A stretch of 45,486 nt of DNA from a virus (taxonomy: Duplodnaviria > Heunggongvirae > Uroviricota > Caudoviricetes), in the IMG/VR virus record IMGVR_UViG_2597489870_000005. One strand, written 5' to 3'. The notes beneath the pieces were generated by a model, which worked only from the letters and a program-made list of their open reading frames with translations, had not been told where the DNA came from and ran no database searches. The translations under genes were made by a program, and so were the position numbers. Shown piece after piece: positions 42,959 to 44,012 of this stretch. Numbering within the stretch: the first letter of the stretch is position 1; each line of letters opens with the position of its first letter.

Positions 42959-43111
42959 GCGAAATTAACTAGAAGCCAAAGATAAAATCATCGCTGAGCA
43001 GGAGAAAATCGCTAACGGAGAAAAGACAGTAAGTCAGTATATGAAAACCGCATGATATCATCAGATAAAAATCGGTCGTAAAGCGAAATATTAATACCAG
43101 AACAAACGAGT

Positions 43112-43133
43112 CGAGGTAAATTATATTACCTCG
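43112..43133 (-). other. Stem-loop downstream of membrane-protein moron
   Basis: Perfect 8-bp stem cgaggtaa/ttacctcg with 6-nt loop; weak U-rich tail on minus strand. Confidence 0.35.
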
Positions 43134-43168
43134 ATAAATTAACTAAAACTTGCCCGCTATATACTATA

Positions 43169-43771
43169 TCATTCAGTATCATCACGCGCGGTCTGTGCAT
43201 ATGTCACTACCGCACCTAATATATTAATTTTCTTTTCAACATAGATAATATTATCGTACTCATAATTGCCATACGGATAGCAAATGCGAATATTCTCATG
43301 TAGATCGGGGTCATCCACCTCAGCTCCAGAACAACTTTTTGAACTACCGGAAGTATACCGATACGGTGCAACATAAGACGATGTCTCTCCAGGCAAAAAA
43401 TAAGTTAGTGTCGTAAGGGGTATAATCAGAAAAAATCCAGCAAATATGCACATCCCTGCATAAACCTTAAGGTATGCTGACAGACTCTTCCAGCCTCTTT
43501 GTTTTACTATCCCCTTCTTAACCCAAAACAGAGATAACAGAAAAGCTATTCCCATGCTAAACAGAATGTAATAGTGGGATATACTCTGATTAAGAAACGT
43601 GACCCTGTAGATATCTGCCCGCCACCAGAAGAAAAGGAAAATAAAGATCAGCCCTGAAACTGTCATGCAAATCAAATAAGGATACGAATCTTTTTTCATG
43701 TTTAGCGCCCATAAAATTTTTCCTGACCCGGACAAATTTACCATCCATTTTTTGCGCAGAAAATAGCTCAT
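43169..43771 (-). CDS. Uncharacterised membrane protein (AT-rich moron antisense to pL operon)
   Basis: 200-aa ORF (start uncertain) with about three hydrophobic helices and a soluble C-terminal domain; strongly AT-rich versus flanks. Confidence 0.6.
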   Translation of the reverse strand: MSYFLRKKWMVNLSGSGKILWALNMKKDSYPYLICMTVSGLIFIFLFFWWRADIYRVTFLNQSISHYYILFSMGIAFLLSLFWVKKGIVKQRGWKSLSAYLKVYAGMCIFAGFFLIIPLTTLTYFLPGETSSYVAPYRYTSGSSKSCSGAEVDDPDLHENIRICYPYGNYEYDNIIYVEKKINILGAVVTYAQTARDDTE

Positions 43772-43942
43772 TACTTACTGCACAATAATACACAAAATTG
43801 CGTAAATTTTTTGCATGGATTTTAGCTCTTTCAGCCGACATTTAAGGGGTAAATAGCATTTCCTAAAAGCAACTGCACCAACCCAACAGAAGGGCTACCG
43901 CTTACGTTGAGAGCAAAAAAGTGTATAGCAGCAATGAAGAGC

Positions 43943-43971
43943 ATCCTCGCACTGACGAGGATTTCTTTTAT
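43943..43971 (+). terminator. Rho-independent terminator on pL strand upstream of orf55/xis/int
   Basis: Perfect 7-bp stem atcctcg/cgaggat with loop cactga, followed by ttcttttat. Confidence 0.6.
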
Positions 43972-44012
43972 CTGAACTCGCTACGGCGGGTTTTGTTTTA
44001 TGGAGATGATAA

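Follow-up and report, generated by a model that had tools for sequence, protein, structure and literature searches.

The window analyzed in this work, i.e., the whole stretch of 45,486 nucleotides, represents a lambda-like prophage and carries in its variable xis-exo (ea) region a horizontally mobile, single-gene moron, the term being used in the Juhala/Hendrix definition of an autonomous accessory transcription unit in a temperate phage. Its gene is a real one and encodes a membrane protein, most likely of 176 amino acids, that is under strong purifying selection. Based on the sequence, on a structural model and on analogy with known systems, we propose that the moron is autonomous and that its product may act at the cell envelope to block the entry of phage genomes, a statement to which, as a whole, we assign a probability of about 40%. 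The anatomical part of this explanation, taken alone, is very probable.

Boundaries and composition of the module

An earlier sequence-only reading of this DNA described about 1 kb of markedly AT-rich sequence in the place where lambda has ea22 and ea8.5, and both observations hold. Comparison with lambda by blastn placed the junctions exactly, as homology stops at 42970 (lambda 30380) and restarts at 43943 (lambda 29355), and the GC content of the module (38.2%, against 48.0% for the window and 50.4% and 46.0% for the two flanks) falls within the lowest 1% of 972-bp windows. The module contains one gene, on the opposite strand to the pL operon, between a downstream hairpin and the plus-strand terminator tL4 (Table 1). 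It displays two features by which morons are recognized, namely an insertion at a site that related phages leave empty or fill in another way, and a deviating base composition. As candidate signals of its own, it has a conserved extended -10-like box together with flanking hairpins.

At the left junction, the first 16 nt of ea22 (lambda 30395-30380) are retained in alignment with the lambda ea22 start, forming a stub of 5 codons that ends in TAG and overlaps the stop of a TraR/DksA-like gene (42737-42958). This stub is the demonstrable remnant of a displaced gene. A nearby frame lacking a start codon (approximately 42969-43055, encoding LEAKDKIIAEQEKIANGEKTVSQYMKTA followed by a stop) had been taken for a 3' remnant, but neither a DNA nor a protein homologue could be found for it, as blastn in distant mode and tblastn over 50,697 phage records matched only five records with the same cassette. 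Moreover, a 56-aa upstream frame annotated in phages 434 and mEp332 has lost 1 bp in the window (between 43891 and 43892), which frameshifts and destroys it; it is absent from the PGAP annotation, is not kept in P2-type copies, and is probably not a gene.

Table 1. Features of the module and its borders (window coordinates).
Feature	Position	Strand	Description	Basis
Substitution module	42971..43942	.	972 bp, 38.2% GC, in place of lambda ea22 and ea8.5 (lambda 30379-29356)	blastn against lambda
ea22 5' stub	42955..42972	+	start codon position and four codons, then TAG	lambda homology to 42970, sequence read
Downstream hairpin, likely terminator	43111..43134	-	35 nt past the stop codon	9-bp stem, -12.9 kcal/mol, z -3.4
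Coding sequence, 176-aa membrane protein (most likely start)	43169..43699	-	Met25 of the 200-aa ORF to stop	family alignment, dN/dS, AlphaFold2 model, charge distribution
C-terminal domain	43172..43396	-	ORF residues 126-200, five-stranded beta-barrel, predicted periplasmic	alignment, model pLDDT 89.9
In-frame 24-codon extension, probably not translated	43700..43771	-	contains promoter-like elements	homologue starts, E189 stops
Extended -10-like box TGGTAAATT	43735..43743	-	predicted transcription start near 43728	conservation among copies
-35-like TTTTCT	43763-43758	-	17-nt spacer to the -10-like box	
Three direct 10-bp repeats TTTACGCAAT TTTGTGTATT ATTGTGCAGT	43777..43806	-		
Terminator hairpin t-L4	43943..43971	+	right junction, common to lambda	-11.6 kcal/mol, tail TTCTTTTATC

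Coding sequence and start codon

The minus-strand frame of 200 codons (43169-43771) from which a 200-aa membrane protein had been predicted is present, but that length is probably wrong, and the true start is most likely Met25. All homologues outside the lambda-type cassette begin at this methionine; the allele of E. coli strain E189 has two in-frame stops inside the 24-codon extension, while its 176-codon frame is intact; and a conserved promoter-like box sits within the extension. On these grounds the 200-aa start was rejected. The alleles of 434, Shigella and the window differ at 2-3 of the 24 extension residues, versus 2-5 of the 176 remaining ones. Start codons also disagree among database records, the annotated product being of 188 aa in 434, 200 aa in mEp332 and under PGAP, and 176 aa in E189 and the P2 types. 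Strong purifying selection on the coding sequence is evident from an overall dN/dS of approximately 0.1 (range 0.09-0.2), with values of 0.09-0.17 in comparison to Salmonella copies, for which synonymous sites are saturated, and of 0.11-0.21 when E. coli alleles are compared with each other. The C-terminal, predicted periplasmic domain is the part under the strongest selection.

Promoter-like region and hairpins

A box of the form TGnTAAnTT is located 44-48 nt 5' of the ATG in eight of nine copies from mobile or mobile-like contexts, notwithstanding the saturation of synonymous sites, and approximately 100 nt of upstream sequence including this box are conserved in the lambda-type copy and in P2-type copies from three genera. 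This conservation points to a candidate promoter that may travel with the gene between unrelated phages. Further upstream, the run of direct repeats contains TTGT-N6-TTGT (43795-43782), labelled as a CII consensus in the 434 record, and similar TTGTGCA repeats are found in the P2-type copies of E. coli, Salmonella and E. hormaechei. A CII-dependent promoter was considered and discarded, since so short a pattern is expected by chance, CII is missing from P2-like carriers, and the consensus is broken in the P2 copy of E. coli.

Both hairpins pointed out in the sequence-only reading could be verified. The downstream one, first placed at 43112-43133 and here at 43111-43134, is followed by a modest to weak T-tract, CTCGTTTGTT, and is likely the intrinsic terminator of the moron transcript. 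The plus-strand terminator at the right junction is labelled t-L4 in GenBank M60848; it folds on the minus strand too, and a second plus-strand hairpin lies at 43974-43993. A search of Rfam with 42600-44300 returned no match. With a candidate promoter region and a downstream hairpin of its own, the gene would be transcribed in the lysogen, independently of the repressed pL operon and opposite to it.

Predicted architecture of the protein

Topology and structure prediction, which had been proposed as a check on the original reading, agreed with it in giving three hydrophobic helices and a soluble C-terminal domain, now of approximately 75 rather than 70 aa. The AlphaFold2 model has pLDDT values of approximately 85-92 across residues 30-200 (ORF numbering), and the C-terminal domain is confidently modelled as a five-stranded beta-barrel. 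In the predicted topology, TM1 (approximately residues 31-50), a periplasmic loop (51-66), TM2 (67-84), a basic cytoplasmic loop (85-102) and TM3 (103-125) precede the barrel, the N-terminus being in and the C-terminus out. Such an orientation is suggested by the positive-inside rule (net charge of +3.8 for the second loop and -1.4 for the C-terminal domain), by two cysteines that are invariant in 22 of 22 sequences (Cys147 and Cys164, likely joined by a disulfide), and by a short strand of the TM1-TM2 loop that pairs with the barrel in the model. The C-terminal domain bears the motif SCSGAxVDDPDL...IRICYPxGNY...IYVEKxxNxLGAVV.

As previously noticed by eye, no recognizable motif could be assigned: profile searches of Pfam, NCBIfam, PADLOC and PDB sequences gave no match to the protein, PADLOC-DB v2 gave none for the window protein or any of the 22 family members, and the sole PHROG match was phrog_1416, whose function is not annotated. 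NfeD-like proteins combine TM helices with a C-terminal OB-like barrel; nevertheless, no family member had a Pfam match above noise, NfeD included, and no SPFH/stomatin-family gene was a neighbour in the contexts examined.

The S-C-S-G-A-x-V loop raises a further alternative, namely that the protein, anchored in the membrane, inhibits a peptidoglycan hydrolase from the periplasmic side (for example, a phage tail-tip lysozyme or transglycosylase, or an animal lysozyme), working through this loop as MliC/PliC proteins do through SxSGAxY, with T4 Sp as a functional analogue. The motif resembles the MliC loop SASGARY, a first hhalign run superposed the two loops, the predicted periplasmic location and likely disulfide would fit, and such an activity is compatible with phage-borne and chromosomal copies alike. 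However, the hhalign probability was 0.24% with E. coli MliC as the target and 0.26% with a profile of three MliC/PliC sequences, the loops were left unaligned in a second run, and Pfam MliC gave no match. Furthermore, Val replaces the Tyr of the inhibitor motif, the pair of SxSGAxY and YxxxTKG loops that goes with homology to this family was not found, and the barrel has 5-6 strands, while that of MliC/PliC has 8; we consider this explanation very unlikely.

The topology also bears on the kind of anti-phage activity that could be envisaged. The sequence-only reading left open exclusion or abortive infection, the latter meaning here that a disturbance of the periplasm or membrane by phage entry or lysis proteins would be sensed by the protein, which would then depolarize or permeabilize the inner membrane, so that the cell dies before progeny is formed. 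Membrane proteins of defence hotspots are often suicide effectors, as stated in the discussion section of PMC9122126, and a single gene that can be the sole cargo of the P2 hotspot (see below) would suit such an effector. Yet only approximately 6 and 18 residues face the cytoplasm in the predicted topology, leaving almost no cytoplasmic mass to sense infection, and there is no sensor partner. In addition, the three TM helices show no sign of a pore, having no conserved polar or charged residues (0 K/R/D/E), and Enterobacter seems to tolerate the gene as a stable part of its chromosome. Abortive infection is therefore improbable, and less likely than a role at the envelope or at phage entry.

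Distribution in prophages and chromosomes

The cassette has a DNA identity of 98-99.7% with phages 434, mEp332 and 2B8, and the phage 434 gene CPT_434_36 ("putative membrane protein", OL657226), mEp332 XSB40999 and ECs_0804 of O157:H7 Sakai all belong to it. It was detected in 916 of 5426 complete E. coli genomes (17%), O157:H7 included, and most of the 279 phage records matching its flanks lack it. The gene is intact in decayed prophages, namely CP-933K/Sp3 of O157:H7, where bet is truncated and int frameshifted, and a remnant in E189 whose neighbours are pseudogenes. A profile search of the family recovered only 61 cluster representatives, nearly all of 165-190 aa; a 3074-aa match (P0124), an adhesin-like protein of repetitive sequence, was discarded as spurious.

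Homologues are also present in the gpQ-gpA (old/tin) hotspot of P2-like prophages of E. coli, Salmonella, E. hormaechei and K. michiganensis (four genera). The family consequently occupies two accessory hotspots of unrelated temperate phages, and the membrane gene is sometimes the sole cargo of the P2 one. Two small genes without Pfam match (81/123 aa and 119 aa) often precede it in Salmonella P2-like prophages; as they are missing at other loci that retain the membrane gene, they were dismissed as obligate partners. Rousset et al. (2022) showed that the P2 locus serves as a reservoir of anti-phage systems, and a "3 TM" member of the family is listed in Table S5 of that work as system 4, with 470 loci the fourth commonest cargo. 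Its sequence is absent from their Table S2 of tested systems, so that it was apparently only catalogued; defence was seen for three of eight additional P2-hotspot systems that they cloned. This location lends real but circumstantial support to the idea of a lysogen-expressed exclusion or abortive-infection gene. It is also guilt by association, and some of the other cargo at this locus showed no defence.

In the approximately 20 contexts examined, the gene had no toxin gene nearby. This speaks against an orphan immunity protein that would protect from a membrane- or periplasm-acting bacteriocin, CDI toxin or T6SS toxin and serve the prophage as a competitive asset. Immunity proteins of pore formers are likewise small multi-TM proteins, and the gene is a singleton in variable loci; still, the family is highly conserved and not diversifying, and we regard this explanation as very unlikely.

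Outside prophages, at least seven Enterobacter species have orthologues at conserved loci of the chromosome, as do Klebsiella and Pseudescherichia. These orthologues are syntenic beside a HAMP-GGDEF gene across the Enterobacter cloacae complex, with further fixed loci in Klebsiella and Pseudescherichia/Cedecea. As orthologues hold conserved chromosomal loci, the family is not purely a phage weapon, and they fit a cellular role in the envelope at least as well as an anti-phage one. The protein could accordingly be a lysogenic-conversion or housekeeping envelope factor without a phage role, i.e., an ancestral enterobacterial inner-membrane protein taken up by prophages for host fitness, whose periplasmic barrel would attach to a component of the host envelope and take part in tolerating stress, in signalling or in maintaining the envelope. 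Purifying selection is at its strongest in the periplasmic domain, which is more in keeping with a conserved partner in the host than with an arms race; the direct 10-bp repeats found upstream look like response-regulator sites; and the prophage has several other cargo genes that may improve host fitness (lom, bor, a porin and a TrkH-type transporter). On the other hand, the gene recurs at particular sites, i.e., at the P2 defence hotspot of four genera and at the lambda ea hotspot; the contexts examined revealed neither an operon partner nor a link to a pathway; and the Cedecea copy adjoins an integrase fragment, so that some chromosomal copies may be prophage relics. Such a role is plausible, albeit somewhat unlikely.

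A possible block of phage genome entry

Our preferred explanation remains superinfection exclusion at the entry step. The protein would work at the cell envelope of the lysogen, where its periplasmic domain would bind either a conserved component of the periplasm-facing surface of the inner membrane or a conserved part of the incoming ejection machinery, and this binding would stop superinfecting phage genomes from crossing the inner membrane. The action would be of the same kind as that of P22 SieA or HK97 gp15, via an unrelated protein. DNA entry of lambda and 434 requires the inner-membrane proteins ManYZ, and prophage products can block this step (PMC6832061). We count in favour of this explanation the retention of the gene in decayed prophages, its prevalence in E. 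coli, the conserved upstream region, the flanking hairpins, the presence in two phage hotspots, the predicted topology, a cytoplasmic mass too small for a sensor, and the low dN/dS. Against it, besides the chromosomal orthologues, stand the lack of homology to SieA and gp15 and the absence of the family from PADLOC and from any annotated PHROG exclusion family.

A lock-and-key block of one phage type is argued against by the fact that the family rides on both siphoviruses and myoviruses, which differ in their entry routes. It is conceivable, though unlikely, that the protein is a broadly acting exclusion factor at the level of the envelope, whose disulfide-bonded periplasmic barrel would hinder a step common to many tailed phages, for instance, the assembly of a trans-periplasmic ejection conduit or tail-associated peptidoglycan cleavage. 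This would explain why lambda-like siphoviruses and P2-like myoviruses captured the same gene and promoter from an enterobacterial chromosomal ancestor, and phage 434 would then have carried an unnoticed exclusion gene since the 1950s.

Altogether, the family is conserved but unstudied, and its additional location in the anti-phage hotspot of unrelated P2-like prophages makes it a good candidate for a new phage-exclusion or envelope function. Should the protein exclude phages, it would represent a structurally new single-gene mechanism among the few entry-blocking proteins that are understood; should it serve host envelope physiology instead, two unrelated phage lineages would have captured the same chromosomal gene with its promoter. 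Because it is common, from one in six complete E. coli genomes, O157:H7 Sp3/CP-933K and the classical phage 434 to a leading place among P2-hotspot cargo, it could affect phage-therapy host range and prophage competition in Enterobacteriaceae.

Comparison with known systems

Among characterized exclusion proteins, P22 SieA resembles the window protein in being a multi-TM protein of the inner membrane and in its size (164 aa); it is expressed by the prophage from its own promoter and excludes phages via a block of DNA entry. Unlike the window protein, it has a long charged segment between its hydrophobic stretches and lacks a beta-rich, cysteine-containing C-terminal domain. HK97 gp15, a "moron product" according to NC_002167, where a putative terminator follows directly 3', is also an inner-membrane protein encoded by a moron of a temperate E. 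coli siphovirus, and reportedly blocks genome entry (Cumby 2012, as cited in PMC6832061). In contrast, it is a 62-aa protein with a single TM helix and without a periplasmic barrel, and its gene is located within the tail operon. Hhalign probabilities of 0.2% for SieA and 0.75% for gp15 indicate no homology to either. The genes for lambda/P22 SieB and lambda RexB share the orientation opposite to the pL operon and are expressed in the lysogen; both proteins act by abortive infection and are unrelated in sequence to the window protein, and the window has a separate SieB homologue at 37746-38327. For the barrel, DUF1093 (3npp, probably 2k5q) and OB-fold small barrels count among the closest known systems.

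The likeness is greatest with the "3 TM" family of the P2 hotspot. Homology is full-length, with the same architecture (BLASTP E 2e-56, 51% identity over 168 aa), and the SCSGAxVDDPDL and ICYPYG motifs, the single-gene organization and the promoter-like region common to P2-type copies are all shared. Unlike the copy in the window, system 4 sits in a myovirus hotspot adjoining cos, and not in the lambda ea region.

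Setting and limits of the cassette

A complete lambda-like prophage makes up the window, its pL operon being on the plus strand, and the AT-rich DNA between the TraR-like gene and orf55 is occupied by a mobile single-gene cassette, whose product is a three-helix protein with a C-terminal beta-barrel, maintained by selection. The sequence-only reading had placed a 200-aa ORF here, on the opposite strand to the operon, and that ORF is indeed present; the surrounding DNA has 38.2% GC, as compared to 48.0% for the whole window, and falls in the lowest 1% of windows of the same size. 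The two flanking signals also proved sound: the minus-strand hairpin has a 9-bp stem (-12.9 kcal/mol, z -3.4) and lies 35 nt past the stop codon, and the plus-strand terminator, a hairpin with a T-tract, was already named "t-L4" in GenBank M60848, the record of the phage 434 int-xis region.

Comparison with lambda by blastn showed that homology stops at 42970 (lambda 30380) and restarts at 43943 (lambda 29355), so that the module spans 42971-43942, and its 972 bp replace the 1024 bp holding lambda ea22 and ea8.5. At the left edge, the first 16 nt of ea22 are kept and now read into a TAG (42955-42972), and at the right edge stands t-L4, a hairpin also present in lambda. In position and in composition, the cassette fits a moron. 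A start-less frame at approximately 42969-43055, suggested earlier to be left over from the 3' part of a displaced gene, found no support: searched as DNA and as a 28-aa translation, it matched, among 50,697 phage records, only the five with the same cassette. Next to the moron there is a second small variable spot, where ORF114 (345 nt; 3811-4155 of the 434 locus L001) is an additional gene of phage 434 between orf55 and xis; it is absent from the window (counterpart 44181-44219) and from phage mEp332.

Features of the cassette region and of other cargo genes in the window
Feature	Position	Strand	Remark
Lom homologue	4048-4647	minus	tail region
TrkH-family transporter gene	26632-28107	minus	491 aa
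Porin gene	29913-31070	plus	385 aa
SieB homologue	37746-38327	minus	opposite to pL
gam		plus	pL operon, first in order
bet	40541-41326	plus	pL operon
exo	41323-42003	plus	pL operon
DUF1382 gene			pL operon, after exo
TraR/DksA zinc-finger gene	42737-42958		pL operon
Hairpin past the stop codon	43111-43134	minus	
Membrane-protein ORF	43169-43771	minus	200 aa as first read
Extended -10-like box	43743-43735	minus	weak -35-like TTTTCT 17 nt upstream
Three direct 10-bp repeats	43806-43777	minus	TTGTGCA-related; upstream of predicted promoter
t-L4 terminator	43943-43971	plus	
orf55	44013-44180		followed by xis and int

Distribution of the lambda-type cassette

The module is a cassette that has already been sequenced yet is unstudied. 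It is 99.7% identical to that of phage mEp332 and 98.2-98.3% identical to those of the classical phage 434 and phage 2B8, in whose records the gene is labelled "putative membrane protein" or "hypothetical protein", and a literature search found no paper on it. Of 5426 complete E. coli genomes, 916 have the cassette, every time on the chromosome, and the loci inspected were mostly prophages at the lambda attachment site beside ybhC; the copy of O157:H7 Sakai is ECs_0804, in prophage Sp3. Moreover, the gene is intact in the decayed EDL933 prophage, where bet is truncated and int frameshifted, and it survives in strain E189 amid pseudogenes and an IS4 element. One further copy, 100% identical to the E. 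coli lambdoid cassette, sits on a 3.5-kb contig (L022) of a Candidatus Nanosynbacter metagenome bin, and is almost certainly a binning contaminant.

Gene model, selection and upstream region

A search of 5.8 billion proteins returned relatives from Enterobacteriaceae only, close to moderately distant, and when 1.84 billion cluster representatives were searched exhaustively with a profile, only 61 matched, nearly all of 165-190 aa. Database records place the start codon in three ways (200, 188 or 176 aa), and all relatives outside the lambda-type cassette start at the residue aligned with Met25 of the window ORF. The true start is most likely Met25 (43699), yielding 176 rather than 200 aa, because a Shine-Dalgarno-like sequence precedes the equivalent codon in most homologues examined, alleles differ at 2-3 of the 24 extension residues vs 2-5 of the remaining 176, the E189 allele has two in-frame stops within the extension and an intact 176-codon frame, and a conserved promoter-like box is located inside the extension. 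The gene is under strong purifying selection, with dN/dS of 0.11-0.21 among E. coli alleles and of 0.09 and 0.17 against two Salmonella copies, the latter with saturated synonymous sites; more divergent comparisons showed tighter constraint on the C-terminal domain than on the helices.

Two other annotations in this region were set aside. The window lacks one base at 43891/43892 that is present in 434 and mEp332 (L001 and L003, 3376-3546), which frameshifts a 56-aa minus-strand ORF annotated upstream (CPT_434_35, "putative membrane protein"); this ORF is probably not a real gene. In addition, M60848 (L002 1-67, window 43646-43712, minus) carries a partial minus-strand "ORF-22+" from an ATG at 43712. 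Being 13 nt before Met25, that ATG is in another reading frame than the real gene, and the entry is a historical mis-annotation.

Approximately 100 nt upstream can be aligned between lambda-type and P2-type copies, despite saturated synonymous sites. Within it, a TGnTAAnTT box, extended -10-like, is found 44-48 nt ahead of the Met25 ATG in 8 of 9 mobile or mobile-like copies (lambda-type, the E189 remnant, P2-type copies of E. coli, E. hormaechei and Salmonella a and b, Cedecea and Citrobacter), and none of the three upstream regions inspected from chromosomal copies (Klebsiella, E. cloacae and Pseudescherichia) has it. The placement of the box and its -35-like partner predicts a transcription start at about 43728, downstream of the annotated Met1. 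A simple sigma-70 scan of the region gave no strong canonical promoter. The comparisons between copies point to a putative promoter region common to the mobile ones, which may travel with the gene, and autonomous expression in the lysogen is predicted. The repeats further upstream also occur in several P2-type copies (E. coli, Salmonella and E. hormaechei), and part of the run is labelled a CII consensus site in the 434 record. As P2-like phages have no CII, such a site is unlikely as a general explanation, and the repeat spacing hints at a possible regulator that binds tandem repeats.

Predicted fold and topology

Hydropathy bears out the three hydrophobic membrane segments first read from the sequence. 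AlphaFold2, run with the family alignment, modelled residues 30-200 (200-aa ORF numbering) at pLDDT of about 85-92, as three long helices followed by a C-terminal beta domain of five strands, which reached 89.9 when modelled alone; this domain is joined by a short strand from the loop between TM1 and TM2 (residues 58-60; T-F-L, nearly invariant). Mean net charge is +3.8 for the TM2-TM3 loop, +1.3 for the N-terminus and -1.4 for the C-terminal domain. Among the cysteines, Cys147 and Cys164 alone are conserved, without exception in the 22 sequences. The positive-inside rule, together with the paired cysteines and the way loop 1 touches the barrel in the model, suggests a cytoplasmic N-terminus and a periplasmic barrel, with a Cys147-Cys164 disulfide probably formed.

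The conserved signature is SCSGAxVDDPDL...IRICYPxGNY...IYVEKxxNxLGAVV. Its SCSGAxV resembles the SxSGAxY loop of MliC/PliC, from which came the idea of a peptidoglycan-hydrolase inhibitor; however, profile comparison gave probabilities of 0.24% and 0.26%, and the loops were unaligned once a three-sequence MliC/PliC profile was used; we regard this role as very improbable. Profile searches with the window protein and 22 aligned members gave no match in Pfam, NCBIfam, PADLOC or all PDB sequences, and the sole match in PHROGs was phrog_1416, an unannotated family of 90 positions, over residues 113-200.

Other genomic homes and possible function

The family's other genomic locations are the most informative result of the analysis. 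Copies from Salmonella (71% and 59% identity), E. coli (78%), Enterobacter hormaechei (58%) and Klebsiella michiganensis (55%) lie in P2-like prophages between portal gene Q and replication gene A, at some loci as the sole cargo. This cos-proximal gpA-gpQ locus, the home of old and tin, is the anti-phage hotspot described by Rousset et al. 2022 (PMC9122126), whose Table S5 lists as system 4 a 181-aa protein, labelled only "3 TM", at 470 of 18,150 loci. That protein has 51% identity to the window protein, with motifs in common, and is absent from their table of tested systems. Other genes share the hotspot with the family: in Salmonella (L005 6703-7687) a YafO-family toxin gene and a 200-aa unknown gene, and in K. 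michiganensis (L042-L044 1281-4623) a 790-aa AAA_16-type ATPase and a 279-aa gene, which look like a separate candidate defence system.

An envelope-level block, by which superinfecting phage genomes would be kept from entering, is our tentative preference, at a probability of about 0.4. It is favoured because recruitment of the family has happened repeatedly, at two phage accessory hotspots, of which one is an experimentally established defence reservoir, because the protein has no cytoplasmic domain able to sense infection, because its conserved surface would be exposed to the periplasm, through which phage genomes have to pass, and because there are precedents in P22 SieA, HK97 gp15 and DicB, the last acting on ManYZ, which lambda and 434 require for entry (PMC6832061). 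Abortive infection, the other role proposed from the sequence, we consider improbable; an orphan toxin-immunity protein appears the least likely role.

The main rival is a role in host envelope physiology with no phage connection, which is possible but on balance doubtful. In its favour are syntenic chromosomal orthologues: at least seven Enterobacter species have the gene at one locus, in convergent orientation to a gene for a HAMP-GGDEF protein. That the putatively periplasmic domain is so strongly conserved likewise suggests a conserved host partner. Further chromosomal copies are flanked by a beta-glucoside PTS operon and a LysR-family gene in one Klebsiella species, and lie near an SBP_bac_5 gene in Pseudescherichia and Cedecea, the Cedecea copy adjoining an integrase fragment. 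The entry block remains the reading that we carry forward.

Other cargo of the prophage

Another cargo gene, for a TrkH-family cation (K+) transporter (Pfam E 5e-145), is reminiscent of trkG in the Rac prophage. It lies where the window is most AT-rich (36-39% GC), with the lysis region on one side and the packaging region on the other. A Gram-negative porin (Pfam Porin_1, E 6e-157), called OmpD or NmpC in related phage records, is a further lysogenic-conversion candidate, and the tail region holds a homologue of the Lom outer-membrane protein (PHROG 108, E 4e-110). The SieB homologue is full-length (PHROG 1301, E 8e-122), so the prophage already has one known exclusion/abortive-infection gene besides the moron.

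Comparison with known systems

Overall, the finding is real and a sound experimental lead. The element is of no categorically new kind: the cassette is an uncharacterised addition to the prophage morons encoding membrane proteins. What is new here is a corrected gene model with exact module limits, a prediction of the fold and topology, the finding that orthologues exist on chromosomes, the putative promoter region common to the mobile copies, and the link from the lambda ea cassette (434, mEp332 and O157 Sp3) to the cargo that ranks fourth in frequency at the P2 defence hotspot. The window protein is not a member of SieA, gp15, MliC/PliC, NfeD or any PADLOC family; it belongs to the uncharacterised "3 TM" family catalogued by Rousset et al.
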